Shown one piece after another: positions 727 through 23,437 of a stretch of 35,289 nucleotides of DNA (positions are counted from its first letter, which is position 1; the number at the start of each line of letters is the position of its first letter). This DNA is from a virus. The position numbers were made by a program, and so were the translations under genes. The stretch lies in UHGV virus genome UHGV-0114939. One strand, 5' to 3'. The notes beneath the pieces are model-generated. The model was not told the origin of the DNA and did no database searches. It saw only the letters and a program-made list of their open reading frames with translations.

Positions 727-769
727 GCGTCGTGAACCAATAGTGTACGTTTAGGTGGGTATTTTTCTG

Positions 770-1204: not shown

Positions 1205-1206
1205 AT

Positions 1207-5157: not shown

Positions 5158-7884
5158 CTATTCCCATTCGCTAACATCTTTCATGCCACTGAGGGTAGCT
5201 ACAATCCCGGCCCTTGTCAGTTTCACGAATTCTTCAGCCCCAACGGCATCACGAATTGCTTTCATGGCAATTTTATTGGCCGAAAATCGTTTCTCTGCTG
5301 CGGCGATCGCTGCTGGTGATGCCCCTGCGCGCACTGCTTTTGTAGCTTCCTGAACGGCTTTCTCTATCGCATATCGACCACTTCTTGTCGCCCCAATCTT
5401 AGCCACAGCATTTCTTAGCGCGCCACCAGCAACCAAACCACTAATCGAACCAATTACACCACCGCCAAAGCCTCCAGCGATCGCACCTGACTGTTGAACA
5501 CCGTTCATAATCACGCCGACGATCTTTGGAAGGCCTGAATCGAGCGTTTTGAGAGCCTCAGTTGTTCTTCCCGTGCGCTCTACGTATCGCTGCGGTCTGG
5601 TACTGGCTTTAGCGAGTACACCGAACTCTTTCATCATTCTACCGAGATCTGGCGCATGACGACTGATGGCGTTTACATTCTGCTGGGTCATGAGCTTGGC
5701 AAAATACTGGATACCTGACTCTTCACCGATTCCTCCCTTCTCTCCCTGCGCCACAGCATGCTGAAGAATAGATGCTATTGCAGGTTGGCGTTCTGCTTCC
5801 GGCAGCGCGGAGATAAGACGGTGAAAAGCTCCCGTTCCAGTGTTTGCGGATGCCTTAAGCGTATCGGCACCTTTTCTTACCATAGCGTCTGATGCGAGAT
5901 CTCGACCAAAAACAGATTCGGCATTTTGTTTGGCGATAATGTAACTTTTAGAGAGATCGTTAGCTTTCTGCCATTCTGTGAGGAAGTTTCCTTTTTCAGC
6001 CATGATGCGCATGTCATCAGTGATAGCTCTGCGCATTTCTCCGGCAATCCGGGCGGCATTGGCCTTACCTGCCCGGGTGTTTGCTTGTTCAGCATCAGCA
6101 AACTTAGCACGCCATGCCTTCATCCCGTCGAAGGTTATGCCGCCACCTTGGTTGTTGGCAGCCTGAAACTGTTTCATCTCCGGGCTGAGTGGAACATTGG
6201 CTGCTTTTTCTGCTTGGACGACAGCCATCCCATTACTCATTTTCATCCTTTCGCGTGGCATCGTGCTTCGCAGTTCTGCCCATGCCATATTCTCTGCTGT
6301 TTTCATATCACTGAGGCTCGCGATGATGCGCTCTTTAATTGCTGCGCTTTTTTCTGATGCGCTTCCAGACTCAGCACCGAAATCAGACAACTGCTTATTC
6401 AACTTTGAGGATATTTCATTGAAGGCCGTAAGGTGAGCATCCTGAACATTCCCAGGAGTTGATGCCAGAACACCTTCTGCTTGGGCAATTCCACGACTAC
6501 CTGAGCGCATTCCAGGCGTCAGGGTGTTGATATTAATACCAGTGATTTTCGCCGCCTTAGCGACATCATCTCTGACGTTTGATGCCTGCGATGCGATATG
6601 CTCTCGGCCTACGGCAGAACGCGCTGCTTTCGATACATCATTGGCGGTTTCCAGAGTATTTGCTGCCCCTAACACATGGCCTGATTGATTTGTATTACTC
6701 CGCAATACATCTCGCATTACGTCACTGGCTGTCTGTCCGCTCTTTATTAAAGCGCGTGCTCCTAGCGATCCTGCTAGGCCAATACCTGTCTCTTTTGCTA
6801 GGTCTTCTGGGCTGATCTGCCCGTTCTTTTGGGCGTTCACCAATGTACCTGGCAGGTTTTCTGCCAACATACTAGCCACCTTTGTGGCCGCACGTTCAGC
6901 ACGTGGAGCGTTGGCAACTGAAGAAGCTGCGGTAGCTGCCTTTCCTGCACCTAATCCTGTAATAAGGTAAGGTGCTAGCTGCTCACCAGCCTGCGCGTAT
7001 GGATCTGTAGGTTGGTCTACTGGGCGAAAGACAGGTGATATGGGCGTGTATGTGCCATCACCCACACCAAGCTTCTGAGCTGCCCATGCTCCGGCTGATT
7101 GCGCCGCATTGACTACCCCCACGCCTGCGTCCATTACATCAAACGGTATATTAGCAATCCCTCTGGCCATCTGCTCTGGCGCAGCTTTCAGCCCTGGCGA
7201 AAGATATTCCATCTCAGGATTAAGGTTAGACTTGGCTACTTGCTGCTGCGGTTCCCCGGCATTTTCATCGGCGAGAAACTGAGCTCTTTTCTGCTCCCAT
7301 GAACTGGCTGTTGGTAGTCCTGCTTCTATGTTCTTAAATTGCTGACGTTTTGCTTCCCATGCAGAAATATCTCCCACCTGAGAGATTTCTTTATCAAGCT
7401 CTGAGTAGTCAGGCTGCTGAAGATTGCGATGTTGACTGGTTTGTGCAAACTGCAAGATTTCACTGTCATCAGGGATTATTCCGGCATCTGCAAATTTACT
7501 TACGTAATTAGCCGTTTCATCTGGCAGTGTAGATTTACCGTTTCTGACGGCATTAATACGAGCATAGCCAGAATTATACCCAGCCAATGCCATACCTATA
7601 TCACCAAATCGCTTCATTCCTTTATTGAGATGGTTTGCTGCGATATCCATTTGCTTTTCAAATGGCAGTGAGCGCGGATCTGTTCCACGATAACCAGCAT
7701 CACTCATTACTGAGGGCATCAGTTGAGCAAATCCTCTAGCTCCTTTCGGTGACTCGGCACTTCCGTTACCACTAGATTCATTGCCAACTAATGTTTCCAT
7801 CGTCCCTGATGGGAAACCATATTTTTCATCGAGATGACGGGAATAGGCTTTCTGTTTTTCTGTCAGTTGTGCCATCATTGCCAT
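5158..7884 (-). CDS. phage internal virion / DNA-ejection-like protein with N-terminal lytic transglycosylase (SLT) domain
   Basis: 908 aa. N-terminus has SLT motifs (ETLVGNESSGNG...GFAQLMPS...ALAGYNSGYARI); the rest is Ala/Gln-rich and helical. Start overlaps the upstream gene by 10 nt. Confidence 0.8.
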   Translation of the reverse strand: MAMMAQLTEKQKAYSRHLDEKYGFPSGTMETLVGNESSGNGSAESPKGARGFAQLMPSVMSDAGYRGTDPRSLPFEKQMDIAANHLNKGMKRFGDIGMALAGYNSGYARINAVRNGKSTLPDETANYVSKFADAGIIPDDSEILQFAQTSQHRNLQQPDYSELDKEISQVGDISAWEAKRQQFKNIEAGLPTASSWEQKRAQFLADENAGEPQQQVAKSNLNPEMEYLSPGLKAAPEQMARGIANIPFDVMDAGVGVVNAAQSAGAWAAQKLGVGDGTYTPISPVFRPVDQPTDPYAQAGEQLAPYLITGLGAGKAATAASSVANAPRAERAATKVASMLAENLPGTLVNAQKNGQISPEDLAKETGIGLAGSLGARALIKSGQTASDVMRDVLRSNTNQSGHVLGAANTLETANDVSKAARSAVGREHIASQASNVRDDVAKAAKITGININTLTPGMRSGSRGIAQAEGVLASTPGNVQDAHLTAFNEISSKLNKQLSDFGAESGSASEKSAAIKERIIASLSDMKTAENMAWAELRSTMPRERMKMSNGMAVVQAEKAANVPLSPEMKQFQAANNQGGGITFDGMKAWRAKFADAEQANTRAGKANAARIAGEMRRAITDDMRIMAEKGNFLTEWQKANDLSKSYIIAKQNAESVFGRDLASDAMVRKGADTLKASANTGTGAFHRLISALPEAERQPAIASILQHAVAQGEKGGIGEESGIQYFAKLMTQQNVNAISRHAPDLGRMMKEFGVLAKASTRPQRYVERTGRTTEALKTLDSGLPKIVGVIMNGVQQSGAIAGGFGGGVIGSISGLVAGGALRNAVAKIGATRSGRYAIEKAVQEATKAVRAGASPAAIAAAEKRFSANKIAMKAIRDAVGAEEFVKLTRAGIVATLSGMKDVSEWE

Positions 7885-9194
7885 CCCTTAAGTTTTGCCT
7901 GATAGTAACTTTCCGGCAGATAGCCATGTGCGGTCACATAATCCTTAACCAGTGAAGGATCCTGCAACAGCATTTTGGTATCAGTTTCTTCGTCCTTAGA
8001 TTTGGTTACAGGAATACCGAGCCCGGCAATCTGTCGTTTCTGCATTCGAATAATTACGTCCTGCGCTTTATTCAACTCTCGCAAAAATGCCTCATTGCTG
8101 GTTGCTGACTTAATGCCATTTTGAGATTGCATAAGGGCAGCCCTTTCCCCTTCGGTTGGGTTAGAGCCAAAAGTCCCTTTGAGGCTAGGCAGAATAACCT
8201 TTAGGTTGTATTCATCAGCTTTGGCGCGTAGGCTTCGTGTGTCTTCTGCTACATCAGGAAGGAATCCAAACCCCAGCGTCAGGGGGTTATAGTTCTGCGA
8301 GCGGGTAACGGCCGAAGGATGTTTCCCTACAATTCCCGCCAGTTCATGACCCACTTCAAGCGCAGAGTTCAAGGAGTCGATGTTACCTGCAACAGTATTA
8401 ATTTTATCGTTCATCTTCTCCACTTTCGCCTGCTGTATCTTGCTCAGTTCAGCATTGAGCTTGTCTCTCTCGATGTCATTTTGAGCACGTCCAAGTCGTG
8501 CTTTCAGAACCATTTCTCTCGTGCGTAGTTGGTTATCGGATAGGACTTTGAACTGCTCCATATCGAGACGTCGATTACCCTGTTCCGCATTAACCTGAGC
8601 ATTATATGCGGATGTATCTGCGTTCTGCTGTGCAATGCTCTGCCCTTGCTGCTTCTCTTGAACACTAAAGTAACTATTTGGATCAGCATGGAGGTGGATG
8701 AGGTCAGTGATTCTGTTGAATTCCTGTGGGTCATTCTGCCAAGACTGATAAACCTCTTCAGCAGGAAGACCAAATCGCTGTAATACTGGATTTGCCTGCT
8801 GAATGGCCTTCTGCATGGTCAGTGGATCTCCAGTTTGTGACGCAAGACGCAGATTCATGGCAGCGTCAGCGGTCTGTCGATTTTGCTCAGCATCAATGAA
8901 TCCCATCTGTTTTTGAGAATCAGCCATAAACTGGGGATACTGGGCCATTAACTTCTGCACGCCAACACGATCATTATTAGCTACCGCACTACCCAACCGT
9001 GCCTGATATTCTTTTAACTGCTGGGAAATTTGCGCCTGCTGATTAATCTCAGCAACGCCTCTTAGCCCCTGTAGCGCCATTAAACCTACGTTTGGCTGCT
9101 GCTGATACTGCACAGGCTGAGGAACGGAAGAACGAGGAGCATTATCATTTTGCGGTGCCATGCTAGGCAGCCCGCCAAGTTGCCATGTCGCCAT
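7875..9194 (-). CDS. phage internal virion / ejection-like protein (Gln-rich)
   Basis: 439 aa; ATG at 9194 overlaps the stop of the upstream gene. Size and position match the middle ejection protein of podovirus modules (P22 gp20 / T7 gp15-like position). Confidence 0.65.
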   Translation of the reverse strand: MATWQLGGLPSMAPQNDNAPRSSVPQPVQYQQQPNVGLMALQGLRGVAEINQQAQISQQLKEYQARLGSAVANNDRVGVQKLMAQYPQFMADSQKQMGFIDAEQNRQTADAAMNLRLASQTGDPLTMQKAIQQANPVLQRFGLPAEEVYQSWQNDPQEFNRITDLIHLHADPNSYFSVQEKQQGQSIAQQNADTSAYNAQVNAEQGNRRLDMEQFKVLSDNQLRTREMVLKARLGRAQNDIERDKLNAELSKIQQAKVEKMNDKINTVAGNIDSLNSALEVGHELAGIVGKHPSAVTRSQNYNPLTLGFGFLPDVAEDTRSLRAKADEYNLKVILPSLKGTFGSNPTEGERAALMQSQNGIKSATSNEAFLRELNKAQDVIIRMQKRQIAGLGIPVTKSKDEETDTKMLLQDPSLVKDYVTAHGYLPESYYQAKLKGWQ

Positions 9195-9871
9195 TAGAAT
9201 CCAAGCCCCCCAACAAGACCAATAAGCCCACCACCAATAGCGCCGGCCGCAGTTCCTATTCCAGGAACAACGGAACCAAGTTGCGCACCCGCTAAAGCGC
9301 CTGATGCTGCCCCACCAATACCACGCGCAAGACTGGATGGCTGCTGCGCCTGACCTGCACGAATAGCGCCAAGCCCCTGCAAGAGTTGTCCGGTATTATT
9401 GGCGTAGTTTTGCCCTGCCGTTGCCTGCCCTGATGCCGCATTCATCCCGACATTTAGCAGGTTTCCATAATTTTGCATTTGCCCACTGAGCCAATTGTTA
9501 TAAAGCATGGGCGCAATGGAAGATAACTGGTTACTGGTAGCTGTTGAGCCAAGCCCCCCGGTAGCTTCTGCTGAGACAAGGTTCTGATAACGGGCCTGAT
9601 CTGCCTGTGTTTTATATAAACCAGAACCAAAGAAATCATTCGCGGCTTTATTCTGCCCTTCCAGAGTCATCAGTCCTTGTAGTTGTTGTAAAGCAGGCAA
9701 TCCGACTTCTGCATACGGCTTGAGATTATTCATCACCGTATTCCACTGCTCGCGCTGCAAATCAATTGCCTGCTGCTGGGCCTTCGCCTGAGCTTTAGAG
9801 GCACCACCATCACCGCCTTTTTCGTATACGGCACGATTGAGATGTTTATGAGCTATGTGGGTAATTAACAT
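9194..9871 (-). CDS. phage internal virion / ejection-like protein with glycine-zipper C-terminus
   Basis: 225 aa; ATG at 9871 with AAGGAA RBS. C-terminus GAQLGSVVPGIGTAAGAIGGGLIGLVGGLGF; size similar to P22 gp7. Confidence 0.6.
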   Translation of the reverse strand: MLITHIAHKHLNRAVYEKGGDGGASKAQAKAQQQAIDLQREQWNTVMNNLKPYAEVGLPALQQLQGLMTLEGQNKAANDFFGSGLYKTQADQARYQNLVSAEATGGLGSTATSNQLSSIAPMLYNNWLSGQMQNYGNLLNVGMNAASGQATAGQNYANNTGQLLQGLGAIRAGQAQQPSSLARGIGGAASGALAGAQLGSVVPGIGTAAGAIGGGLIGLVGGLGF

Positions 9872-10326
9872 TCGCTGAATTCCTTATATTGTTGCCGAGT
9901 TAACTGATAAAGCGTTACGCCGACGGGTTTACCACATCTGATATAAGCATCATCAAGGTGACCAACACGGGTAGCGCCAAGCAAACGGATAATTGCCCGT
10001 CCGTATTTGGTGGTGTCAGGAACCATGGTAATGCTGTTAAGGAATGGTGAGTTTTCGAGAAGCCATTTGCAGAATAATCGATGCCCTTGCAGTGCATATT
10101 CACCACGGAATCCGGGGTCGTACACCGCATGGCATTCAACAACGCTATGCCAGAAGTTACGCACTTCATGAACGCCAGCCAGCACTAATCCTTCGTAGAT
10201 GCCGAGATATACCGCATCAGGCTTGATGTAGTACGTGTGCCCCGGCTCAACAATATTTTCGGTATTGCCTGGCTCGTTAAGAAAGGCCTGTAATCGCACA
10301 GGGTTATCAATAAATTTTAGTTCCAT
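9865..10326 (-). CDS. hypothetical phage protein, first large gene of the ejection-like module
   Basis: 153 aa; ATG at 10326; 7-nt overlap with the next gene. Confidence 0.6.
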   Translation of the reverse strand: MELKFIDNPVRLQAFLNEPGNTENIVEPGHTYYIKPDAVYLGIYEGLVLAGVHEVRNFWHSVVECHAVYDPGFRGEYALQGHRLFCKWLLENSPFLNSITMVPDTTKYGRAIIRLLGATRVGHLDDAYIRCGKPVGVTLYQLTRQQYKEFSEC

Positions 10327-10948: not shown

Positions 10949-11067
10949 TTGTGTTGGTTCAAAATACCGTGTTGTTGGTTCAGTGTTGGTTCAATAAAAA
11001 GAATAAAATCCTTATAAAACAATACTCTTTACAAATTGAACCAACTGAACCAACTGAACCAACACCT
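10949..11067. repeat. iteron cluster 2: GTTGGTTCA at 10953, 10974, 10985 and 3 tandem TGAACCAAC at 11037-11063; mirror image of cluster 1
   Basis: 11027-11067 is an exact reverse complement of 2781-2821. Sits 22 bp 3' of the primase-helicase gene, like the P4 crr/ori repeats bound by alpha. Confidence 0.8.
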
Positions 11068-11088: not shown

Positions 11089-13848
11089 TCATTCTTCAGA
11101 TGAGTTATAATCTCCTGGCTGGTAATTGAGTACATAAACGTTTATTTGTCGTCCCTGAATACGTGGTGATTTTCTTTGGTATCCACGACCGCTGTTTGGT
11201 GGGGTTAGCATCCCGGCTTTTTTCAACACTTCAGCAAACTGTTTTGCGTTGAAACCACATGCGATCTCCTTTTCAAATGTGGCCGGGAATGTGTAGAAAA
11301 TCATTGGGCTTTCGTCATGTTCTCCACGCTGACGGTATCCGGCTAAATCTTTGATGGGCAAATCTGCCGGGCTGTATGGAAATGGTGCAAAACGGCTAAG
11401 CCCATAGGCATTAAGAAATGCCTCCGTTTGTTCAATAATCTGCTGATGCTCTTTGTTACCTGTGCCGAACTCACGCAACCATGCGTTATAGCTGTGCTGT
11501 ATCGCATCACGGCATGTCTGAGCATCCCAGCCTGTTACAACCTCGCCTAACAACAATGCGGCCTCCAGAATGGCAAATCGCGCGGCTACACGGTGAACCT
11601 GCTCACCATAATCGGATGGGATCAGGCTTCTCCATCTGCTTTCGCAATCACGAACGGTTTTAATAGCCTGTTGCTGGTGGTCTGCCAGCCATTTAATCCA
11701 CTCACGCCCGGACGCGCCGTGGTGATGCTGGTAAGCGTCTTTCAGTGCGTCTGCGTGCTGTTTTCCGTTCTGGTAATCGTGAAAGCGTACTGCTTTACTC
11801 AACGGAATATTCAGCAGTCGCACCAGTTGCCCGGCTTTGGTTTTTCGCCCGGAAGTAGCGATAAATGTTTCTAAATCCATTTCTCCGGTGCTGATTGCCA
11901 CTGTACGCCAACGTTTTAGATCCCGGTTTCCACCATCTTTAGCGCCTTGCAGTTTCCCTACACCGTTAAATAACGCATAGGCAGACTGTGAAACGCTGAC
12001 AGGATCAGCGCCCTGACCAACTTCATCAAGCGGCATTAGTCCGTCATTGTGGGCGGCGGCCTCATTTGCCAGCCCCAGCGCGGTTCCGTACCACGTCAGC
12101 CGCAGTAAATCAGGGTTGCCGTATAAGCTGCTCGCCACGTTTGCCGTGGTGGTCTTACCTGCGCTCGACTGCTCATAGAAATGAATGCCGAACCCGTCAG
12201 CGCCCACCAGCCCAATCAATGGCGCTGCCAGTGCTGCGCCGATCCCGGTCATCATTGAATAGTTACCAAAGGCCAGACGCGCCACGTTATCACGCCAGCT
12301 TTTCGCGCTCCCTGAGACGGTATATCCGGCTGCGGCTGAGCTTCTCCCGCTGAACAGCACAGGATTTTCAGGTGTTCCGATGATTTCCCCATCAGGCATG
12401 ATGTACGCTCCGCATTGCCAGCCAGTGGCATGAGCAACACGCCACAATTCACGAGAGCCACTGCGTTGTAGCCAGTCTGCCAGTATTGCTCTGAGGCTGC
12501 TTTTGGTCGTGACATTTACCCCACCAGCTTTAAGTGTGCGCCATCCTTCACGTTCACCAATATCAGCCAGTGGAATGGCAGCGGTTGTCGGCGTTTCAGA
12601 ACCAAACGACAGCCAGCGAAGAATGAGATACTGGTCTTTATCGTCTCTGCCAGTACCGATAACGCTTAACGGAGAACATAACCAGCTTTCGTTATTGATG
12701 ATTTCTCCACTCTGGCTGTCAGCTCTCGGAGATACCCAATAAATACCATCCTCGCGGCTTTCTATTCTTGGTTTCAGTGGGTCGGTATCCATAACCTTAA
12801 AATCGCTTCCCTCAATGGTCTGTGGCTCCTGTTTCACGCCATTACCCTGTGGTTGGTACATTGACTTATTGAACGCTTCTGTGGCGCATTTAATGCCGTG
12901 TTTTTGGTGGTAATCATTCCAGTCTGCTTTGTGATCTGTCGGGGGTAATGCCACCCATCCAGAAACAGATAAAGCTGCTTTTTCTGCTGCTATTCTCCCC
13001 GTGTTTTGTCTTCCTTCGCTGTGGTCGTTATCCGCAGCAATGATGATTTGTGCTGAAGGAAATTTATCCCGCAGTACCTGGGCGACATATAACAGGTTCC
13101 CGGCATCAATCGCCGCCACTGTCAGCGCCTCTGGACGAATTAAATGGGCAGATAATGCCGTTGCCAGCCCTTCTGCGATTAAGATGCTCTGTGTTGTTTC
13201 TGGTGCGTTTATGGCGTGATATGCCCCTCGCTTTGCCGAACCTGTCAGGAGTCTTTTTTCACCATGTGAGGTAATAGTCTGTGCTGCTGTGACTGCGCCG
13301 GATTTATCCACCAGCGCCAGCAACAGAGATCCATCGGGCAACACGGGGAATGTAAAATCACCTACCCCTTTCGCAACCAGATAATCAGATTTGCCGTTTA
13401 CAGCCTTTCTGCGCATGTCATCAAACTGACGGGAAAACGTATCCCGTCTTTGTTGTTCGTCCTTCTCTGCCCTTTTCAGGCGCTCCTGTTCGCGTCGCTG
13501 GCGCTCGGTTTCCAGTTGTTCCCGTTTCTGGCTGGTGGCTTCTGGTGTTTCCGTTGTCCGGTAATCAATACCCAGAACATCAGCGGCAAGAAGCGCCGCC
13601 TCTGTTGTGTCGCAGTTATTTACGCGTTTAATTAAATCCAGCCCATCACCAGCGCCGCACTGATTACAGATGAAGCTACCGCGCCCGTTGTCGTCGAACC
13701 GGAATCGATCTTTGCCCCCACATGCAGGGCAGGGAGCATGACGGCGCGGAGAGTCAGGGACATTTATGTTCAGGCAGCCCAGCACATGAGGCCAGTTGTT
13801 TTCAGACGCACTGATAACCTGACGGATAAGATCAATGTTTCGCATCAC
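11089..13848 (-). CDS. P4-alpha-like primase-helicase (zinc ribbon + Toprim + DUF927-type NTPase)
   Basis: Zinc ribbon CPACGG...FICNQCG; Toprim acidic motif IIAADNDH; Walker A YEQSSAGKTTT. Track start at 13848 is a GTG; an ATG follows at 13845. Confidence 0.85.
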   Translation of the reverse strand: MMRNIDLIRQVISASENNWPHVLGCLNINVPDSPRRHAPCPACGGKDRFRFDDNGRGSFICNQCGAGDGLDLIKRVNNCDTTEAALLAADVLGIDYRTTETPEATSQKREQLETERQRREQERLKRAEKDEQQRRDTFSRQFDDMRRKAVNGKSDYLVAKGVGDFTFPVLPDGSLLLALVDKSGAVTAAQTITSHGEKRLLTGSAKRGAYHAINAPETTQSILIAEGLATALSAHLIRPEALTVAAIDAGNLLYVAQVLRDKFPSAQIIIAADNDHSEGRQNTGRIAAEKAALSVSGWVALPPTDHKADWNDYHQKHGIKCATEAFNKSMYQPQGNGVKQEPQTIEGSDFKVMDTDPLKPRIESREDGIYWVSPRADSQSGEIINNESWLCSPLSVIGTGRDDKDQYLILRWLSFGSETPTTAAIPLADIGEREGWRTLKAGGVNVTTKSSLRAILADWLQRSGSRELWRVAHATGWQCGAYIMPDGEIIGTPENPVLFSGRSSAAAGYTVSGSAKSWRDNVARLAFGNYSMMTGIGAALAAPLIGLVGADGFGIHFYEQSSAGKTTTANVASSLYGNPDLLRLTWYGTALGLANEAAAHNDGLMPLDEVGQGADPVSVSQSAYALFNGVGKLQGAKDGGNRDLKRWRTVAISTGEMDLETFIATSGRKTKAGQLVRLLNIPLSKAVRFHDYQNGKQHADALKDAYQHHHGASGREWIKWLADHQQQAIKTVRDCESRWRSLIPSDYGEQVHRVAARFAILEAALLLGEVVTGWDAQTCRDAIQHSYNAWLREFGTGNKEHQQIIEQTEAFLNAYGLSRFAPFPYSPADLPIKDLAGYRQRGEHDESPMIFYTFPATFEKEIACGFNAKQFAEVLKKAGMLTPPNSGRGYQRKSPRIQGRQINVYVLNYQPGDYNSSEE

Positions 13849-14203
13849 CGTACCCCACGTGGTCTATAGCGTTTGCGATATGGCTAACCAGCATCTGCCA
13901 CTTGGTTATTCCGTAATCAGTCAGCATGCCATCATTGTTTAGCCACATATCAAATTCAGCGGTTGTCGCAAGTTTCCACTTATCGCCGTGGGCAGTCCTC
14001 ATTGCTGGGTACATGAATGCGCAAATCAGATCACAAACATCTGACGGCTTCAGAGATGTAGTAATGATGCGTCCCTCTGGCGTCTGAATTGCCATTTTCT
14101 CTTCACCAGTAGAATGAAGGTTATGAATCCACACAGCACCAGCAATCTTTGCCACCTGCTCTCCGATTGCGGAGCTAAGCGCCATTTCTGCATTTTCACG
14201 CAT
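13832..14203 (-). CDS. hypothetical protein
   Basis: ATG at 14203 with GGGAGG RBS; overlaps neighbours by 8 and 17 nt (translational coupling). Confidence 0.6.
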   Translation of the reverse strand: MRENAEMALSSAIGEQVAKIAGAVWIHNLHSTGEEKMAIQTPEGRIITTSLKPSDVCDLICAFMYPAMRTAHGDKWKLATTAEFDMWLNNDGMLTDYGITKWQMLVSHIANAIDHVGYGDAKH

Positions 14204-14537
14204 GAGAACCTCCCGCTACAGTTGCGCCCATGTCATTAACCATGCTTTGCCATATCTCACGCCCGACGTCAGTCAATCCGTCCTTAGTGACGCAACGATC
14301 AAGAAGCTCGATCCCCACGGTTTCCCACTGCGGGTAGAACACTTTCATGGCTGCCAGTGTGTAGCTATCGATCAGGCTGCGAACGCCTTTTACTCCATTG
14401 ACGATTTCCACGCGGACGGCCTCGCCGTCCGCATCAACCATGAAATAGTCCCCGCCGCTGGTGGAGGTAATGTGGTTATACAGTGCCGACGCATACTTAT
14501 TTGCCAGCGCATTCAGTCGGAAATTTTTAGTAATCAT
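14196..14537 (-). CDS. hypothetical protein
   Basis: ATG at 14537 with GAGGA RBS; 113 aa. Confidence 0.6.
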   Translation of the reverse strand: MITKNFRLNALANKYASALYNHITSTSGGDYFMVDADGEAVRVEIVNGVKGVRSLIDSYTLAAMKVFYPQWETVGIELLDRCVTKDGLTDVGREIWQSMVNDMGATVAGGSHA

Positions 14538-14547
14538 GGTTCCATCC

Positions 14548-15150
14548 TCAGTGCGTCACTGGTTCCGCTGGCATGCCGTTTTCATTCAGTTCAGCTATAA
14601 AGCTGTTGTGAAGTTCAGCAAGCGTTTCACGACCAAATGGAGTCAGTGCTCCTTGTTCCACATCCATCATGGCTCTGTAGAAAATGATGGCGCGTTCTGT
14701 GCCAGACTCGATGCCAAAACGTTCTATCATCGCGCCCTCAATGTTGTTTGCCATAGCGAGGCGCTCTGCTACTGGATACAGCGGCATGGCGACGATGCCG
14801 TTGGAATAAACAGCCACTTCGGAAGGGTTGCCAGTATCATCAATGATGCTGACAGTGCCGTTTTCCTCTCTCATTTCCAGCATGAATACTGTTGCGATCA
14901 GCCATCTCCACATAATGACGTTATGCTGTGATGTGTAATCGAAATATCCCTGGTTGCCGCCATCGGCTATAGCGAGATGTATTGACATACCTTCATCTGG
15001 TTTATCGTCATAATCCCCGGCATCCAGACGATTTACGGCATCAATATATGAGACGGCCTCAACGCGTTCTGTCATGCCATCGTTGCTGCGGTACATGATG
15101 TTTACGCCGTCAGGCGTTGCTTCTGTATGGAAAGTTAAGAAATTATTCAT
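14548..15150 (-). CDS. hypothetical protein
   Basis: Start moved to the internal ATG at 15150 (Met36 of the track ORF), giving an 8-nt overlap with the upstream gene instead of a 113-nt overlap. Confidence 0.55.
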   Translation of the reverse strand: MNNFLTFHTEATPDGVNIMYRSNDGMTERVEAVSYIDAVNRLDAGDYDDKPDEGMSIHLAIADGGNQGYFDYTSQHNVIMWRWLIATVFMLEMREENGTVSIIDDTGNPSEVAVYSNGIVAMPLYPVAERLAMANNIEGAMIERFGIESGTERAIIFYRAMMDVEQGALTPFGRETLAELHNSFIAELNENGMPAEPVTH

Positions 15151-15364
15151 GTTTCGCCTCGCCTGAATGATTCTGTAACTCATATTTGCCCAACAATTCG
15201 TCTGCTTCCTGAATAGCTTCTGGTACGCCATTGAGCAGTGACATAACCGCGCCAATCATTAACTTGTCTCTGTTGCTGGGGCTGGCCCCTTCAAGCCAGA
15301 ACCCTAAAACAGTCTGAACCTGTTCGATGCGACATTGTGCTTCAATGAGCTGGATGTTGGTCAT
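15143..15364 (-). CDS. hypothetical small protein
   Basis: ATG at 15364 with GGAGAG RBS; ATGA overlap with the upstream gene. Confidence 0.55.
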   Translation of the reverse strand: MTNIQLIEAQCRIEQVQTVLGFWLEGASPSNRDKLMIGAVMSLLNGVPEAIQEADELLGKYELQNHSGEAKHE

Positions 15365-15624
15365 TTCGCACTCTCCGCATCGATTAAACTGATATCTATC
15401 AGAGAGGTAACTTTTTGTAGCCAGCTAGTGATTACTGTCGCCTGTTCCCCTCCCACCGATGGAAGAATCTCATTCATCACATGAACCAGACCTGTGCGCG
15501 CCCTGGTAAGCCGTTCAGTCGTGCGATCTGCAAGAGTGAATGTGTCTGGATATGGCTCTTCACGGCTCAGCAATGATTCAATTTCCAGCTCACACGGATG
15601 ACGATAAATTAAGTTGATATTCAT
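15361..15624 (-). CDS. hypothetical small protein
   Basis: ATG at 15624; ATGA overlap with the upstream gene. Confidence 0.55.
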   Translation of the reverse strand: MNINLIYRHPCELEIESLLSREEPYPDTFTLADRTTERLTRARTGLVHVMNEILPSVGGEQATVITSWLQKVTSLIDISLIDAESAK

Positions 15625-15815
15625 TTTTCACCACCAAGAATTACCAGCTCTGCACGAGCATCGTTAACCAAAGATGAGCACGCTTTAATCGCATCCACGA
15701 CATCAGCAGCGTCCATTTCTTCAGCCGAAAGACTGACAGCAACCAGGACAGCCGCTGCTTGCTCGATTAATTGAAGTGCGGACGTAAGTCGAGGGGCATT
15801 AATTGAGTTATTCAT
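15621..15815 (-). CDS. hypothetical small protein
   Basis: Internal ATG at 15815 (Met20 of the track ORF) preceded by a GGGGG-type RBS. Confidence 0.45.
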   Translation of the reverse strand: MNNSINAPRLTSALQLIEQAAAVLVAVSLSAEEMDAADVVDAIKACSSLVNDARAELVILGGEK

Positions 15816-16836
15816 TGGTTGCCCCCGTTTTTCCTGGCATTTCGCCACCTTCCAGCAGGAAATGAACGTCACGAACGGCGAGATCCAATATCGCGAGTAA
15901 CGCCTTCAGTCTTTCGTCTCGTGAGGGAGAGTTGCTCACCAGAATGTCGTTAATCACTTCTGTCAGTGTGATGATCTGGCTTGTGCGTTCGAGGGGATCC
16001 ATATGCACATCGTAGGTTTTAATCATGTGCCACCTCCATGCGGATACGACCAGCAAAAAAGCAGACGTGATCGCGCACCAGAGAACGGCGAGCATCGCGT
16101 TCAGACTCGGCAGCAATATGATGAATTTTGGCGGTAATTGTCGGGCAATCGCGGCGAACTGCGGCGATAATCCAGATAAATTGCGGTTTTTGGGTAGGGG
16201 TAGTAGCCAGCATGTGGCAGCCTCCTTGATTGATGGTTTATAGCCACCGCCGGAGGTCCTAAGCTCGCTGGCGGTGGACTGTACAGGGTTAGGACTACTG
16301 GCAATCAAGGAAACCAGCCTGACCGAAGTCAGCCCCATACAGCCCACCATTGATAAGGTGTGCGTGTGCGCCGATACAAAAAAAGACGCTGGCGCGTCAT
16401 GTATCGCCTCGATTGCCTGCGGGGTCCTAATCCCGGCACCCGTTTTATGAGGTGCCTTATAACCATAAACCGTGTTGCCGCATAACGGCAAGCTCTTTTT
16501 TATGGACTCCGAAAACTCAGTATTGGAAGCACCAGATGCACAGTACATCGCGCTCATTTCGTTAACGTCACGCACGTGGACGAATGTTTTTGTGGAGTCA
16601 CTACACGAGCGGAAGACATCATCTACGACCAGAAATTTTCTGGCGCAGCCGCTGACCTTCTCAATGCTAATATCATCGCCCGAGATTTCTGGTATGGTTA
16701 AGGCATCCGTTCCGGCCACCAGCAAATGATAAACTTTGCTTGTATCTGCTGTATTAATGCCTGACTTTGCCGTCATATTTCTGGATTTTGGCGACATACC
16801 AGCCAGTGAAAATGTCTTCTTCTGGATGGGTATCAT
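15808..16836 (-). CDS. hypothetical protein (342-codon open frame; may be composite)
   Basis: ATG at 16836 with GGAGGT RBS and ATGA overlap with the upstream gene, so the start is credible. Internal ORFs with strong RBS at 16213 and 16026, and GC-rich hairpins at 16245-16277, leave the true extent uncertain. Confidence 0.4.
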
Positions 16837-17012
16837 TGGTTAACCTCCGCGAACTCCTTCATGAAACGCGCCAGCGGTTGTACGCATGGCGATTGATACC
16901 CGTCGCGATAAAACGTCACTCGGTTGTGAGACACGCTTTCGACAGTAACGAGTGCTCCGTGGGCATCTTTGTAGCGTTTTTGAGGTTGTGGTGTTCCTGT
17001 CGGCTTAAACAT
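16833..17012 (-). CDS. small conserved prophage protein (DUF4222-like?)
   Basis: Internal ATG at 17012 (Met30 of the track ORF) with GGAGG RBS; 8-nt overlap with the upstream gene; MFKPTGTPQPQKRYKDAHGALVTVESV... Confidence 0.45.
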   Translation of the reverse strand: MFKPTGTPQPQKRYKDAHGALVTVESVSHNRVTFYRDGYQSPCVQPLARFMKEFAEVNQ

Positions 17013-17838
17013 GGACCGCCTCCAGACGCTTGGCGAGCCAGCGTTGCGACAGGCGGGTGAGTTCTCCTTTACGCTGCTCATATTCCATGCCCATATCAAT
17101 TAACGTGATATTGGTGCTTTCGAGATATGAGAGGTGCTCAAGCTGTTCTGCGTTCATATGGTCGCGAGGTTCGCCAGAATAGCCATTTATCCGCGCCCAC
17201 TGTTTAGCAGTTAGCCCACCAAGAACGATACGAGAAATCATATTGCTCTCGTTTGTGTAGTGGTGTTGCTGCGTCGTTTTACCCATCTCGGCACGGGCCA
17301 TATTCAGCGCATCGCACATTGGCTTAAAGTTGTTTGCGGCACTGATACGGGCTTTTAGCTGGCGACGATAGCGGGCGGCGATTTCAGGCACGCTACGCTG
17401 TAATTCTTCCTCGCACTGGATGAAATAACGGCGGATAGCGCGCCCCTGATCATTGCGTTCGATCATTGCCAGTTCTTTCGCCATTCCGACACTTAACAGA
17501 TAGTCTTTGCCGGGTCTGCCAGACTGCTTAATCTTGCTGTAAGCCGCGTCATTCGGGCTTTTCCCCAAATTTGGGGAAATTGTTTTATGGACTGAGTAAT
17601 CGTGCCCAATGGTGAAGTCATATTCAGAGATGCGATCAGTGATCCATGTAGAGAAGTCTTTTCCCACGCCCAACGCTTTGTGTAACGCTTTTGCGCTAAC
17701 AATATTGGTTTCACGCCCACCGATATGACCAGGAATAACCGGGACAATTGCGGCAAATTCATTACCGTTAATTGTGCCCAGAGAGGCGTTCAGATGAGGG
17801 GCGGCCTCAGAAATTAATCTGCTTTTTTCGATGTTCAT
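17005..17838 (-). CDS. phage antirepressor-like protein (AntA/Rha-type N-terminus with KilAC-like C-terminus)
   Basis: ATG at 17838 with GGAGA RBS. Motifs VSAKALHKALGVGKDFSTWITDRI and DYLLSVGMAKELAMI are typical of antirepressor families. Confidence 0.6.
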   Translation of the reverse strand: MNIEKSRLISEAAPHLNASLGTINGNEFAAIVPVIPGHIGGRETNIVSAKALHKALGVGKDFSTWITDRISEYDFTIGHDYSVHKTISPNLGKSPNDAAYSKIKQSGRPGKDYLLSVGMAKELAMIERNDQGRAIRRYFIQCEEELQRSVPEIAARYRRQLKARISAANNFKPMCDALNMARAEMGKTTQQHHYTNESNMISRIVLGGLTAKQWARINGYSGEPRDHMNAEQLEHLSYLESTNITLIDMGMEYEQRKGELTRLSQRWLAKRLEAVHV

Positions 17839-17850
17839 TTTCAGTCTCCG

Positions 17851-18282
17851 TTAGGCGGCGTTAAACGCGTTCGGGTAGAGTTTCAGAATGTCGGCAATTT
17901 CCTGCTGAGAAAGTCCGTTGTGATCATTTATGTTCGCAAGATGGTTAACATGAGTGATCACTTTCAGAACATCACCACGGCAGGAGAAACGGTAGCGAAG
18001 GTGTGTTCCGATACCATCAGGATTCTTTTCGTCGATACGCTCCAGAGTGATTCCAAGCTGGCGTTCTAACTCTGTTGCATAGTTACGACCAGAAGACAGA
18101 CGGCAGTAGCGAAGAATGTCATTTTCTGTCCATCCCTCTATACCAGTACGCAGCATATAGACTCTGGCACGATGCTTTTTCGGTGTGCGCTTTGGTGCTT
18201 GAAGGGATTTTGTCAGGGGCGTAACATCAGATACGCGAATATCTGAATTAGCCGCCTGTAATGGGCGGTTTTTCTTTTCCAT
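17851..18282 (-). CDS. hypothetical protein (P4-like island regulatory region)
   Basis: ATG at 18282 with GAGGTGG RBS; overlaps the AlpA stop. Confidence 0.55.
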   Translation of the reverse strand: MEKKNRPLQAANSDIRVSDVTPLTKSLQAPKRTPKKHRARVYMLRTGIEGWTENDILRYCRLSSGRNYATELERQLGITLERIDEKNPDGIGTHLRYRFSCRGDVLKVITHVNHLANINDHNGLSQQEIADILKLYPNAFNAA

Positions 18283-18485
18283 CAGGCCACCTCGTCTCTA
18301 GATTCTAATATACACTTCTCAATCCATTCATCTATTTCAGACTCAACAAAAGCAATTGCCCGACTTCCAATTTTTACCTGTTTAGGGAACCTCCCCTGAC
18401 TAATAAGACGATAAATCCATGCTTTGCTATAACCAGTTCGCCTTTGAACTTCAGAGAGACGAATTAATGAATTGTAATTAGCCAT
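18282..18485 (-). CDS. alpA: AlpA-family phage transcriptional regulator / excisionase-like HTH protein
   Basis: 67 aa: MANYNSLIRLSEVQRRTGYSKAWIYRLISQGRFPKQVKIGSRAIAFVESEIDEWI, the typical AlpA signature. Confidence 0.8.
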   Translation of the reverse strand: MANYNSLIRLSEVQRRTGYSKAWIYRLISQGRFPKQVKIGSRAIAFVESEIDEWIEKCILESRDEVA

Positions 18486-18912: not shown

Positions 18913-20127
18913 TCATGCGTGTTTTTCAAACACCATATGCACCACATTTCCGCCATGCTCGAGAGAATCCATATAGTCGGCATACCATTGAAGCATCTCC
19001 CGCCGTCCATCCAGATATTGCGCATGGTTGTATGTGCCACGAATTGAGTTCTTATCAACGTGAGCGAGCTGCGTTTCTATCCACGCGGTGTTATAGCCCT
19101 GCTCATGCAAAATCGTGCTCATAGTGTGTCGGAACCCATGACCAGTTACACGTCCAGCGTAGCCAATGCGCTTAAACACTTGGTTTATGCTGGCCTCACT
19201 CATTGTTTTCCTTGGATCATTGCGCCCGGGAAACATAAGAGGGTAATTGCCTGTTATTTCTCTAATCTTCCCAATAAGCGAAAGAGCCTGCTCAGACAAT
19301 GGCACAATATGAGGCCGCCGCATTTTCATACGTGAAGCGGGTATCTCCCATATAGCCTTGTTGAAATCAATTTCATCCCATAATGCGCCACGTAGTTCGC
19401 CAGTTCGCAAGCCGGTGATAATCAGTAGACGAGCCGCCATAACAACCAATGCGCTTCCTGAGTAACTGGACAATGCCTTGAAAAAATCAGGTAATTCTTT
19501 GGTCGTAAGGAAAGGGTAATGATTAGATTCATGGCCTTGCATCGCGCTAGTAAGGTCTGGTGCAGGGTTATACTCTGCGCGACCAGTGACTATTGCATAA
19601 CGGAAAACTTCCCCGCACCGCTGCCTCACTTTTTTGGCTTTTTCTGTCGCACCGCGCCCCTCGATGCGCCGCAGCACATTCAGAAGTTCAAGTGGTTTGA
19701 TTTCGGCGATTGGTTTTTTGCCAATGTAAGGGAACACATCTTTGTTGAAGGCTTCGAGGATGTCTGAAGCATAACCAGCAGACCATTTTTTTAATTTGCT
19801 GCTGTGCCACTCAAGGGCAATATCTTTGAAGGTGTTGTTTAACTGCGTTTCCCGGGCAATCTTTTCCTCTCGTTTCGCTTCCATCGGATCGATACCACCA
19901 GCGATACCTCTTTTCGCATCTTCTCGTTTTGCCCGAGCATCGGCTAGAGTAACCTCAGGATACACACCTAGTGCCAATAGCTTCTCTTTACCAGCTACAC
20001 GATATTTAAGTCGCCAGTATTTACCTCCATTAGGTTTTACCAAGAGATACAAACCGCCACCATCGGCCAGCTTGTAAGCCTTCTCTTTTGGCTTGGCTGT
20101 GTCTATTTGACGGGCATTGAGTTTCAC
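18913..20127 (-). CDS. P4-type tyrosine integrase
   Basis: GTG start at 20127 with GGAGGT RBS. N-terminal arm-binding signature LADGGGLYLLVKPNGGKYWRLKYR; C-terminal catalytic HGFRHT and Tyr region RGTYNHAQY. Lies next to the tRNA-derived att core. Confidence 0.9.
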   Translation of the reverse strand: MKLNARQIDTAKPKEKAYKLADGGGLYLLVKPNGGKYWRLKYRVAGKEKLLALGVYPEVTLADARAKREDAKRGIAGGIDPMEAKREEKIARETQLNNTFKDIALEWHSSKLKKWSAGYASDILEAFNKDVFPYIGKKPIAEIKPLELLNVLRRIEGRGATEKAKKVRQRCGEVFRYAIVTGRAEYNPAPDLTSAMQGHESNHYPFLTTKELPDFFKALSSYSGSALVVMAARLLIITGLRTGELRGALWDEIDFNKAIWEIPASRMKMRRPHIVPLSEQALSLIGKIREITGNYPLMFPGRNDPRKTMSEASINQVFKRIGYAGRVTGHGFRHTMSTILHEQGYNTAWIETQLAHVDKNSIRGTYNHAQYLDGRREMLQWYADYMDSLEHGGNVVHMVFEKHA

Positions 20128-20443: not shown

Positions 20444-21646
20444 ATGAAATACAAGCCTAATGCGTACCTTGTTAAAGAAAACTCGTCGGTATACTCCGTC
20501 AAGGTCACTATTCCGCCTTATATGCGTTCCCTTTTTGGGAATCGAACAGCATTCATGCGTACAACAGGCACGGCAGATATCAGGGAAGCCCGAATCATTC
20601 GTGACAAAGTCATGCACGAGTTTTTTGCTATCAGAGACAGACTCAAGCCAAAACCACAACGTAACAGTGTTGATCGCGTCCTGGTGGAACTGCGCTCTAT
20701 CAACCAGCATGTAAGCCAAAATGATGGGATAGACTTCGCCACGGCTCGTGTGTGTCCCTCCCTTGTCCAACTGCGGGATGAATTTATTGTCCAACACAAT
20801 GACAGGCGCAAGCTGTCTACCTTGAGCAAGTACATTAAGGCGGTGGAGGTCTTCACGGCTCATTTCCGGCGTAAGGATTTCCAGTTGCAGGAAATCAACA
20901 GGACTATGGTCACCGATTGGTTAGACAGCGCCAAGCAGGAGAAAGCCAGCCAGACACTGGCGAATTATCTTGGCTGTCTGTCCCAACTAGTGGCACTGGC
21001 TCAGAACCGTTATCACGATGCGCCGAAAGAGAATGTATTCGCGGGCCACAAACTGGACGTGCGCCATGATCGAGAAAGCTACGAACCCTTTAGCGGGGAT
21101 GAACTAGCTAAGGTGTATGCGGTGCTTGATGAAGAGATGAAAGCCGTTGCGATGGTGGGAATGTATAGCGGTATGCGCCTTAACGAAATCTGCTCTCTGC
21201 AAATCAGCAATATCAAAACCGTTGAGGGGGTATGGTGTTTCGAGGTGACGGAGGGTAAGACACGCAATGCGGCTCGCCTGGTTCCAATTCATAGCCGATT
21301 GACGACACTCGTTAAAGACCTCATCCAGAACAACCACAATGGCTTCTTATTCTACCATGCCAGCATCACAGAACGTGCAGACGGCAAGCGCTCAACGTGG
21401 CATACACAGCGATTTACACGGGCTAAACGTAAAGCGTTGGCTGAGAAAGGCACTGAGCGGAAGGTGTTTCATAGTCTGCGGGGAATGTTCATCAGCCAGC
21501 TTGATCGTGGTGGAGTCCCAGAGGACAGGATCGCATTGATTGTGGGTCATGAGCGCGGGAAAACCGAATCATTCCGCACCTATAGCCAAGGGGCTAGCAT
21601 GAAGGAGTTGGCGGATTATGTAGACATTGTCTCACATAGCATATAA
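20444..21646 (+). CDS. tyrosine integrase (site-specific recombinase)
   Basis: ATG at 20444 with GGGGGA RBS. Catalytic-region motifs HSLRGMF and RTYSQG. Diverges from the att core, opposite the element A integrase. Confidence 0.85.
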   Translation: MKYKPNAYLVKENSSVYSVKVTIPPYMRSLFGNRTAFMRTTGTADIREARIIRDKVMHEFFAIRDRLKPKPQRNSVDRVLVELRSINQHVSQNDGIDFATARVCPSLVQLRDEFIVQHNDRRKLSTLSKYIKAVEVFTAHFRRKDFQLQEINRTMVTDWLDSAKQEKASQTLANYLGCLSQLVALAQNRYHDAPKENVFAGHKLDVRHDRESYEPFSGDELAKVYAVLDEEMKAVAMVGMYSGMRLNEICSLQISNIKTVEGVWCFEVTEGKTRNAARLVPIHSRLTTLVKDLIQNNHNGFLFYHASITERADGKRSTWHTQRFTRAKRKALAEKGTERKVFHSLRGMFISQLDRGGVPEDRIALIVGHERGKTESFRTYSQGASMKELADYVDIVSHSI

Positions 21647-21792
21647 AAGTAAAACACACCATAAAAACAGCCAAAAAAAAACAATAGTTATAACTTAATA
21701 AAATTTAATGCTAATTAATTCAAATCATTATCATCTCGCTTCATTTTTTATTTATTTGGAAATATATTGATACAAAAAAGGACGGATTGACT

Positions 21793-22434: not shown

Positions 22435-22438
22435 AACA

Positions 22439-23146: not shown

Positions 23147-23148
23147 AA

Positions 23149-23165
23149 GCCGGGATTAACCCGGC
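23149..23165. terminator. hairpin GCCGGG-ATTAA-CCCGGC between convergent genes (putative bidirectional terminator)
   Basis: Perfect 6-bp stem directly after the stops of 22439..23146 (+) and 23167..23373 (-). Confidence 0.4.
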
Positions 23166-23166
23166 C

Positions 23167-23373
23167 TCAATGTTTCAGTTTAATCTTTCGATGCTGCTCA
23201 TAATGAGCAAGTGCTGATTCCCAACCGTAATCATTCACCCGCTGCAAAAAAGTGCTGCGTGGAACGTCGAAATATCTCGCAATGGCTGACAGATTCAACC
23301 AGTTATCGGATTGATTATCAAGACTCATTGCCAGAAGTGGCAGACCTTTAGAATTGAACAGTTTCATGTGCAT
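23167..23373 (-). CDS. small helix-turn-helix protein
   Basis: ATG at 23373 preceded by AAGGAAAGGAGAT. HTH-like LSAIARYFDVPRSTFLQRV. Confidence 0.5.
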   Translation of the reverse strand: MHMKLFNSKGLPLLAMSLDNQSDNWLNLSAIARYFDVPRSTFLQRVNDYGWESALAHYEQHRKIKLKH

Positions 23374-23437
23374 GTGTGTATCTCCTTTCCTTTGCCTCGC
23401 CTGGCAGCGGGAGCAATGCGCTCCCGCAAACCGCTTT

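Follow-up and report, generated by a model that had tools for sequence, protein, structure and literature searches.

A probable antisense RNA switch at the head of a translationally coupled small-gene chain and primase in a P4-related phage satellite

The phage satellite considered here lies in the UHGV virus genome UHGV-0114939, a stretch of 35,289 nucleotides (nt) that is called the window in the following and whose coordinates are used throughout. Its minus strand carries eight consecutive small open reading frames (ORFs) of 64-200 amino acids (aa), which extend from position 16213 down to 13832 and lead into a primase-helicase gene; they are preceded by two small RNA genes of the isrK and C4 families, and transcription of the whole region runs from high to low coordinates (Table 1). 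The interval 11089-16836 probably represents the early operon, comprising immunity and replication, of an Enterobacterales phage satellite of the P4 or phage-inducible chromosomal island (PICI) kind, which would be gated by RNA. A preliminary description of this stretch had already noted a chain of at least seven coupled genes upstream of the primase. This chain is real but includes one gene more, and one of its junctions is a gap of 10 nt. In the order from icd to the primase, the junctions amount to -8, -8, -4, -4, -8, +10, -8, and -14 nt, and the overlaps of 4-17 nt that had been described are thus found at seven of the eight (4, 8, or 14 nt, the last becoming 17 nt if the GTG instead of the ATG start of the primase is used). 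The stop of icd and the start of orf72 share the 8 nt ATGATTAA, orf72 and orf64 share the 8 nt ATGAATAA, and orf64 and orf87 the 4 nt ATGA. Likewise, the individual ribosome-binding sites were confirmed by a Shine-Dalgarno site at all nine starts of the chain and the primase. The duplexes formed with the anti-Shine-Dalgarno sequence range from -6.1 to -11.4 kcal/mol, compared to a background of -2.2 +/- 2.7 kcal/mol across the region, where values of -5 kcal/mol or below are reached at only 15.5% of positions. Terminator-like sites were not found on the minus strand between 13832 and 16019.

The main functional element of the interval, a probable antisense RNA switch made up of isrK, C4, and icd, had been overlooked in that description. 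The 3' end of isrK is formed by an intrinsic terminator (stem at 16385-16398 followed by a T-run), and the C4 match covers the full Rfam model with zero non-canonical pairs. The b' loop of C4, which reads UUUCCUUGAUUG as RNA, is complementary to CAAUCAAGGAGG, the segment holding the icd Shine-Dalgarno sequence. In addition, the single-stranded a' sequence (GUCCUAA) pairs with UUAGGAC just 3' of C4 as well as in the loop of isrK hairpin 2, and b1 in isrK is a second, imperfect copy of the b target. The locus therefore has the geometry of an immI-type cassette, i.e., a C4-family RNA, targets on both sides of it with the downstream one lying over the ribosome-binding site, and a coupled Icd/Kil cistron. 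Among 77 loci with relatives of the primase, originating from Enterobacterales and beyond, C4 was detected by nhmmer in 19. These feature nine distinct b' loops and four distinct a' sequences, and in every case the targets of the same locus are altered to match. Duplexes of cognate partners are 6-9 kcal/mol more stable than those of non-cognate ones, which applies to b'-b2 (-15.3 vs. -6.3 kcal/mol), a'-a2 (-10.1 vs. -3.3 kcal/mol), a'-a1 (-11.6 vs. -4.8 kcal/mol), and b'-b1 (-11.7 vs. -5.4 kcal/mol).

The best explanation for this arrangement, as judged from sequence features, is that C4 masks the ribosome-binding site of icd and thereby, via translational coupling, controls the entire chain together with the primase. 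The cassette at the head of the operon is homologous to immI of P1, the immunity region of P4, and the isrK locus of Gifsy-1. Transcription would yield a short IsrK/seqA-like RNA that is stopped at its own terminator, and read-through transcripts would carry the C4/CI-like RNA, whose a' and b' sequences would pair with a2 and b2. Since b2 contains the icd Shine-Dalgarno sequence, this pairing would block the entry of ribosomes, with the IsrK part supplying a1 and b1 as decoy copies of the targets. Due to the overlapping genes and the lack of an internal terminator, a loss of icd translation should leave the chain untranslated and open to Rho-dependent termination, and via this gating the primase would be kept silent while the island is quiescent. 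Ribosomes originating from an activated upstream promoter (alpA-antA-DUF4222) could in turn read through the cassette and override the switch, as Eta does in P4. Nevertheless, several observations weigh against such a scenario. The window does not contain the 38/39-nt insert with a TATAAT box that most related islands feature behind the terminator of isrK and in front of C4, and without this promoter-bearing insert C4 would have to arise from transcripts reading through that terminator. Further upstream, the sole promoter-like site found (16664-16635) is weak. Furthermore, three related islands feature alpA directly before the primase, without cassette or chain, which implies that this primase family does not require the switch. 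Besides, icd and the long ORF that spans the cassette are in different frames, unlike Eta/Kil of P4, and the override route hence rests on analogy. The 38/39-nt insert occurs in four of eight Escherichia coli variants as well and is missing in the window (16355-16378), in phages encoding Shiga toxin (Stx) 2a, and in a few further loci.

In P1, the immI region is laid out as a1b1-C4-a2b2-icd, and the genes downstream depend on the translation of icd. Work by Citron and Schuster in 1990 and by Biere et al. in 1992 reportedly placed the b2 sequence of P1 over the ribosome-binding site of icd. The cassette described here resembles immI of P1 and P7 (c4-icd-ant1/2) in that the C4 RNA is followed first by icd and both targets are copied upstream and downstream of it. 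The two differ in that a small-gene chain and a primase follow icd here and not Ant, whereas an AntA-family gene is located upstream. A C1-type repressor or operator was not identified in the window. The C4 RNA of P1 is known to repress icd-ant (PMC8198154). The isrK-orf45-anrP locus of the Salmonella prophage Gifsy-1 (PMC4825925) likewise comprises an isrK gene with its own terminator, a stable RNA encoded after isrK and complementary to it (STnc1160), and a small first ORF whose translation is coupled to that of the next gene, and the read-through mRNA of Gifsy-1 is translationally inactive. Both the short IsrK and the translational coupling of orf45-anrP were shown experimentally (PMC4825925). 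According to its position and the comparison with CI in the same study, STnc1160 may well be equivalent to C4. However, the short IsrK of Gifsy-1 activates an antirepressor/antiterminator cascade in a prophage, whereas the output here would be a satellite replication operon.

The likeness to P4 extends over the order isrK (seqA), C4 (CI), and icd (kil) inside a long Eta-like frame after an AlpA/Vis-type gene. In P4, isrK (8615-8692) and C4 (8420-8507) are both located inside the 214-aa Eta ORF, and CI reaches 74.9 bits with RF01695. The layout seqA-CI-seqC described for P4 matches this cassette, and CI/seqA and Eta/Kil control the transcription of the P4 replication operon (PMC10111431, PMC4825925). 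The corresponding P4 interval comprises CI RNA, kil/eta, epsilon, orf151, cnr, and alpha. As in the window, the primase, of the Zn-ribbon/TOPRIM type, is preceded by small genes, P4 contains a DUF4222-like sequence (the N-terminus of orf151), and a Cnr-like domain is encoded upstream of the primase. Apart from the frame of icd, the window differs from P4 by the missing match to epsilon (PF25738) and, in the scanned ORFs, by missing sid, delta, and psu genes. Moreover, the helicase part of its primase is of the DUF927 type, with identity to P4 alpha (33%) being detected at the N-terminus only; the gap between isrK and C4 is 24 nt in contrast to 107 nt, without the promoter-bearing insert; there are eight instead of four cargo cistrons; and the Cnr-like domain carries an additional domain at its N-terminal side and is followed by two more genes. 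BLASTP against epsilon, orf151, and cnr of P4 revealed only the icd/kil match and a weak match between DUF4222 and orf151.

That the small ORFs are coding is supported by exact matches of each protein to widespread Enterobacteriaceae proteins, by intact homologs in other genera, and by the pattern of segregating sites. Across eight E. coli variants, segregating sites were counted by codon position (1/2/3), revealing a third-position bias for orf200 (19/16/48), orf72 (2/2/7), orf73 (0/0/4), and orf113 (0/2/6) and a weak one for orf87 (5/4/7); in icd, 2 of 195 sites are polymorphic. The primase differs from that of locus L001 by 12 substitutions, all 12 of them at third codon positions. Clearly, orf200, orf73, orf113, and the primase gene are under purifying selection. 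The preliminary description had stated that none of the proteins has a recognizable domain. This does not apply to the icd product, which belongs to the NCBIfam family NF033153 (71.7 bits vs. a cutoff of 25), carries an Icd-like RefSeq name as well, and shares 43% identity across 58 aa with the C-terminal end of the P4 'cI 137 aa' ORF (the Kil part of Eta/Kil), nor to the stretch upstream of it with a Phage_ASH match and two Rfam RNAs. It holds for the other seven proteins, which belong to no Pfam or NCBIfam family, with three of them matching PHROG families of unknown function. For orf72, homologs of 39-45% identity occur in three other genera and an annotation of its own exists in some RefSeq genomes, and orf64 has one homolog outside Escherichia (62% identity, locus L006, Enterobacter) and no family in Pfam, NCBIfam, or PHROGs; by eye, both products appear helical. 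The product of orf73 features the conserved motif C-x-I/V-E-Q-A-Q...W...L-x-G-V-P-E and belongs to phrog_20558 (E 2.9e-9), a family of unknown function, and a search of PDB sequences with its hidden Markov model (HMM) profile yielded no relative. For the four smallest proteins, encoded by orf72, orf64, orf87, and orf73, no informative relatives were obtained from Pfam, PHROGs, NCBIfam, and hhalign, nor, for orf73, from the PDB. A kinship among these four was considered, but hhalign probabilities of at most 50% are too weak to claim it. In many NCBI records, orf87 is named 'nicotinic acetylcholine receptor subunit beta', which is spurious.

The composition of the chain varies strongly. About 54 related islands contain alpA, orf143, AntA, in part DUF4222, the Ash/Icd ORF, small ORFs, and the primase in this order, with nearly all junctions being -1, -4, or -8 nt. 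Nevertheless, between 0 and 8 small ORFs separate icd from the primase, and their families are shuffled and sometimes duplicated. In a sample of 81 loci (77 related loci, L001, P4, and two phage loci), the families were counted 36 (orf200), 29 (icd), 23 (orf113), 20 (orf73, sometimes duplicated), 14 (orf87), 5 (orf72), 3 (orf64), and 3 times (orf123). The small proteins are 30-60% identical to their relatives where the primases show 70-80%. Within E. coli, orf113 and orf123 are present or absent as a pair, both being missing from the variants L166 and L167. Relatives of orf200 and orf113 are further encoded by temperate phages, including phiP27 (L06), Stx phages, and EKP1, in whose early-left operons they are located. 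On these comparative grounds, the genes between icd and the primase are regarded as exchangeable cargo. In the E. coli variants L165 and L166, the same small-gene chain is followed, after orf123 or orf200, by a DUF5906 replication protein in place of the TOPRIM/DUF927 primase, which indicates that chain and replicase recombine independently.

Among the cargo, orf200 offers the most informative relationship. Its product belongs to phrog_1515 (E 7.5e-47), with the N-terminal ~75 aa remaining without assignment, and a profile search of 1.84 billion representatives delimited a compact family of 145 matches. According to profile comparison, its C-terminal domain (approximately residues 75-186) is distantly homologous to Cnr (DUF5375), the copy-number regulator of P4. 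A profile built from 68 representatives aligned to P4 Cnr by hhalign with a probability of 91.9% (E 7e-7) in 90 columns that span residues 8-101 of the 106 in Cnr, and the score of 40.1 clearly exceeded that of shuffled Cnr (11.0 +/- 2.0, maximum 20.6 in 150 shuffles). Additionally, the short bridging members P0253, P0254, and P0260 match both the orf200 profile (E ~5e-5 to 2e-4) and Pfam DUF5375, three orf200 homologs carry a precomputed PF17345.9 match, and both families terminate in P-x-x-H. Still, some results speak against this relationship or against a role bound to the primase. The bridging members reach only 16-19 bits in DUF5375 compared to the cutoff of 30, and a smaller orf200 profile yielded a probability of only 57% with Cnr. 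Searching orf200 and three homologs with PF17345.7 gave no match even at E <= 10, and with no match above the gathering score, orf200 is not a DUF5375 member by Pfam's rule. The AlphaFold2 model of orf200, based on 35 close homologs, was unusable with a predicted local distance difference test (pLDDT) score of 44.5 and was kept out of the fold search. Moreover, relatives of orf200 are known not only from 36 related loci but also from temperate phages that lack this primase, where they are encoded in early-left operons, which argues against a function tied strictly to it. An HMM search of PDB sequences with the orf200 profile returned nothing, and a scan of viral contigs with P4 Cnr provided near-identical copies only, which were useless for a profile. 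Cnr controls the copy number of P4, and in 90% of P4-like elements its gene is flanked by those of epsilon and alpha (PMC8628076). By this likeness, orf200 probably modulates the primase/initiator, and the link to Cnr offers a first testable function for phrog_1515, a family common to satellites and temperate phages.

The two genes closest to the primase, orf113 and orf123, are, according to profile alignment of their families (hhalign probability 83.6%, E 8e-6, 89 columns), paralogs forming a duplicated pair. In most related islands, orf113 is the gene immediately before the primase, whereas orf123 is rare. The structure prediction and fold search which had been proposed for each protein were informative for one of the two models: orf113 was predicted by AlphaFold2 as a small alpha/beta protein with a four-helix and beta-hairpin fold (pLDDT 93.2) that has no match in the PDB or BFVD, in contrast to the orf200 model mentioned above. 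An HMM search of PDB sequences with the orf113/123 profile likewise found nothing. The family thus provides a confidently folded, predicted domain which is unmatched in both structure collections. A link between orf113 and Cnr (hhalign 48%, E 2e-4) was too weak to be claimed.

The cassette and the first cistrons are spanned by the 342-aa frame. Its ATG overlaps the stop of the DUF4222 gene by 4 nt (ATGA), it passes isrK, C4, and icd, and it ends with the stop of orf72, which is nested in frame; its C-terminal end overlaps orf64 by the same 8 nt as orf72 does. The 270 codons above orf72 (16027-16836) contain 0 stops, compared to 9 and 18 in the other two frames, the frame was open in 0 of 20000 shuffles, and it is intact in all eight E. 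coli variants, four of which carry a divergent cassette and an in-frame 39-nt insert. This openness far beyond chance, the translational coupling to DUF4222, a Pfam Phage_ASH match (aa 124-219, E 2.6e-14), further matches to PHROG 'transcriptional regulator' families, and the annotation of a 342/355-aa ash family protein in several RefSeq genomes would all suit a genuine 'Ash family' regulatory protein, with the Rfam matches being secondary and the chain beginning only after this ORF. Such a protein gene is quite improbable, as the Phage_ASH match sits exactly over isrK and C4, here and in P4, and the variation of the RNA part tracks RNA pairing (compensatory stem changes, co-variation of loops and targets) and not codons, with segregating sites of 11/6/8 and no third-position bias. 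Likewise, the first 366 nt (16471-16836, 122 codons) lack a codon-position bias (18/11/19), and the N-terminal part has no homolog outside Escherichia among the related loci compared. Moreover, the cassette of a sibling island is 24% divergent between near-identical flanks, and the conserved coding unit is icd, in another frame. For these reasons, the reading as an ordinary 342-aa protein gene was rejected. By analogy to Eta, it is likeliest that the act of translating the long frame is selected and not its protein product, since a frame that is held open without a coding-type substitution pattern is read as selection for translation through the region. In P4, the translation of Eta from an upstream promoter prevents termination (PMC10111431). 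Being coupled to DUF4222 at its start and to orf64 at its end, the long frame could provide a second route for ribosomes into the chain which bypasses C4.

The RNA-gated operon leaves room for different roles of the cargo. It is possible, although considered doubtful, that the small proteins after icd are helper-manipulation or anti-defence effectors that are expressed early, with the primase merely being the next gene. The preliminary description had pointed in this direction by reference to the position in P4-like satellites, and this setting was confirmed insofar as the island is P4-related and PICI-type and the equivalent interval of P4 does hold the helper derepressor epsilon. The variable cargo of 0-8 genes in front of the same primase, its shuffling, duplication, and faster divergence, and the changing presence of orf113/orf123 within E. 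coli fit an anti-defence or helper-directed role, as do the occurrence of the orf200, orf113, and orf73 families in early-left accessory operons of temperate phages and the confident but unmatched predicted fold of orf113, which is common for such effectors. However, the expected content of epsilon, antirepressors, or anti-defence genes was not recovered: no chain protein matches PF25738, the P4 epsilon family, BLASTP against P4 epsilon was empty, no match to the PADLOC models, the only set of this kind searched, reached a meaningful score, and the sole antirepressor-like gene, AntA, is located upstream of this range. In addition, the single detectable relationship, that of orf200 to Cnr, points to a replication regulator. 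Effectors would moreover explain the cargo alone and are compatible with an RNA-gated operon. Weak matches of chain proteins to PADLOC, PTPS, and TY-Chap1 (E 0.01-0.1) were set aside as noise. That the small ORFs are decaying, functionless remnants of a defective island is hardly credible. Few homologs exist for orf64, orf123, and orf72, and orf87 and orf123 show little third-position bias at small counts, but all frames, overlaps, and Shine-Dalgarno sites are intact, identical proteins occur on >1000 contigs for most ORFs, and homologs are conserved across genera, besides the purifying selection on four of the genes. Moreover, the block is covered to at least 80% in 249 of 5426 complete E. 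coli genomes, with 94-98% identity among the matches listed.

Beyond the satellite, the 260-nt cassette is ~90% identical to that of many Stx2a-converting phages. Compared to the Oslovirus phages P13771 and GER2, and to the O104:H4 prophage, the sequences a', a1, a2, b1, and b2 are unchanged, and b' deviates by 1 nt. In the Stx2a phages, the cassette precedes a Rha-family regulator, encoded upstream of N, which it would gate. The sibling island L005 encodes a primase that is 100% identical at the protein level, and its divergent cassette has another specificity, which between near-identical flanks indicates that cassettes are swapped as modules. It is conceivable, but rather unlikely, that the RNA cassette serves as a helper-matching device, i.e., for signalling between satellite and helper via shared antisense RNA immunity, with the partner being changed by cassette swapping. 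If RNAs of matching specificity cross-react, the IsrK or target transcripts of an infecting or induced phage could titrate the C4 RNA of the island and switch on chain and primase, or, conversely, island C4 could silence the regulator of the phage, and the Cnr-like orf200 as well as orf113/orf123 would be early effectors released by the phage signal. A search for genomes in which the island resides together with a prophage of its cassette type revealed no sign of this, the median being one copy per genome.

These results change the annotation of a block present in ~5% of the complete E. coli genomes, as the 'ash' stretch represents a probable RNA switch and icd, and the 'hypothetical proteins' downstream belong to a single translationally chained operon with the primase as its last gene. 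The nine co-varying pairs of C4 loops and targets provide a natural orthogonal antisense set, which would allow a direct test of satellite replication silencing. Current understanding is not overturned by this, since similar cassettes had already been noted in P4 and PICIs; the novelty is modest and lies in the co-variation of nine specificities, the distant relative of Cnr that bears an additional domain, and the duplicated small protein unmatched among the structures searched.

The annotation of the long frame by the Prokaryotic Genome Annotation Pipeline is inconsistent among the genomes compared (L164-L168, L001), with a single 342/355-aa ash protein in some and an ash pseudogene plus an Icd-like protein in others; where the pseudogene is called, the 72-aa ORF (orf72) is annotated in some genomes and not in others. 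The profile PF10554 (Phage_ASH) aligns to the translated isrK/C4 region both in the window (16180-16467) and in P4 (locus L002, 8333-8524). This profile serves as the 'epsilon' profile in PMC8628076. As it covers the RNA region, while P4 epsilon belongs to PF25738, epsilon calls based on PF10554 probably detect the immunity RNA region.

Table 1. Features of the satellite early region and its upstream genes in window coordinates.
Feature	Position	Strand	Remarks
Integrase gene	18913-20127		
alpA-like helix-turn-helix gene	18282-18485	minus	
orf143 (143 aa)	17851-18282	minus	
AntA-family gene	17005-17838	minus	
DUF4222 gene	16833-17012	minus	
342-aa ORF	15808-16836	minus	RefSeq 'ash family protein', counterpart of P4 Eta
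isrK / P4 seqA-like RNA	16379-16455	minus	Rfam RF01394, 63.0 bits, gathering score 50
isrK target copy a1	16424-16430	minus	TTAGGAC
isrK target copy b1	16407-16415	minus	CAATCGAGG
C4 / P4 CI-like antisense RNA	16267-16354	minus	Rfam RF01695, 80.2 bits, gathering score 45
C4 recognition sequence b'	16302-16313	minus	Hairpin-2 loop, TTTCCTTGATTG
C4 recognition sequence a'	16289-16295	minus	GTCCTAA
Downstream C4 target a2	16256-16262	minus	TTAGGAC; direct reading of the sequence
Downstream C4 target b2	16221-16232	minus	CAATCAAGGAGG; includes icd Shine-Dalgarno AAGGAGG
icd-like first cistron (64 aa)	16019-16213	minus	
orf72	15808-16026	minus	Shine-Dalgarno GGAGG, -10.6 kcal/mol
orf64	15621-15815	minus	
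orf87	15361-15624	minus	
orf73	15143-15364	minus	
orf200	14548-15150	minus	
orf113	14196-14537	minus	
orf123	13832-14203	minus	
Primase-helicase gene, final gene of the coupled chain	11089-13845	minus	Pfam Zn_Ribbon_Prim, Toprim_3, DUF927

The island is ordered as int, alpA, AntA-like gene, DUF4222, RNA cassette, small genes, TOPRIM/DUF927 primase, and origin (ori) iterons. In the upstream part, the junctions along alpA, orf143, AntA, and DUF4222 amount to -1, +12, and -8 nt. Just past the stop of the primase, three direct copies of TGAACCAAC with 9-nt spacing (11031-11063) are followed by three inverted copies, GTTGGTTCA, at 10951-10994, and these repeats (10951-11063) look like an iteron-type replication origin. 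The late zone (5158-10326, minus strand) encodes a DUF2824 protein, P22 gp7, an Inj_translocase of the gp20 type, and a protein of 908 aa with an SLT domain, which according to these matches represent a P22-type set for DNA ejection in a satellite, instead of capsid or packaging genes. A near-identical island in strain AREA_486 has the same late genes and is located at tRNA-Thr; tRNA genes are absent anywhere in the window. Island ORFs of at least 100 aa were scanned at 184-726, 770-1204, 1207-1893, 4309-5007, and 5158-10326, and matched DUF2824, P22 gp7, Inj_translocase, SLT, SocA_Panacea, and PRiA4_ORF3. Psu, Sid, and Delta/Ogr, by which together with int, alpA, epsilon, and alpha P4-like satellites are recognized in SatelliteFinder (PMC8628076), had no match among these ORFs, with the far end of the island lying outside or at the edge of the window and the absence hence not being absolute; epsilon was not found either.

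The order of zones by which Gram-negative PICIs, islands of about 10-20 kb, are described (int-alpA, Bro-network gene, primase and ori, late genes; PMC10111431) is present in the island. These PICIs are divided into Integration, Bro, Replication, and Late zones, and C4/isrK matches were already reported in several of them (PMC10111431). The island shares with them int, alpA, a Bro-network/AntA gene, an Ash-type ORF with C4/isrK, primase and ori, and captured late genes, and differs by its late zone of P22-type ejection proteins in place of capsid or packaging genes. The account of gene content in PMC10111431 does not cover a chain of small genes located between Bro zone and primase.

The far end of the island (184-1893, minus strand) encodes a protein with a SocA/Panacea domain (1207-1893) as well as a PRiA4_ORF3 protein (184-726), and both may be accessory or defence cargo. 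A second element (20444-24478) adjoins the integrase end of the island and carries its own integrase in the opposite orientation (20444-21646), a DarT-NADAR toxin-antitoxin pair (21787-23146), and, on the minus strand, a Phage_cap_E capsid gene (23438-24478).

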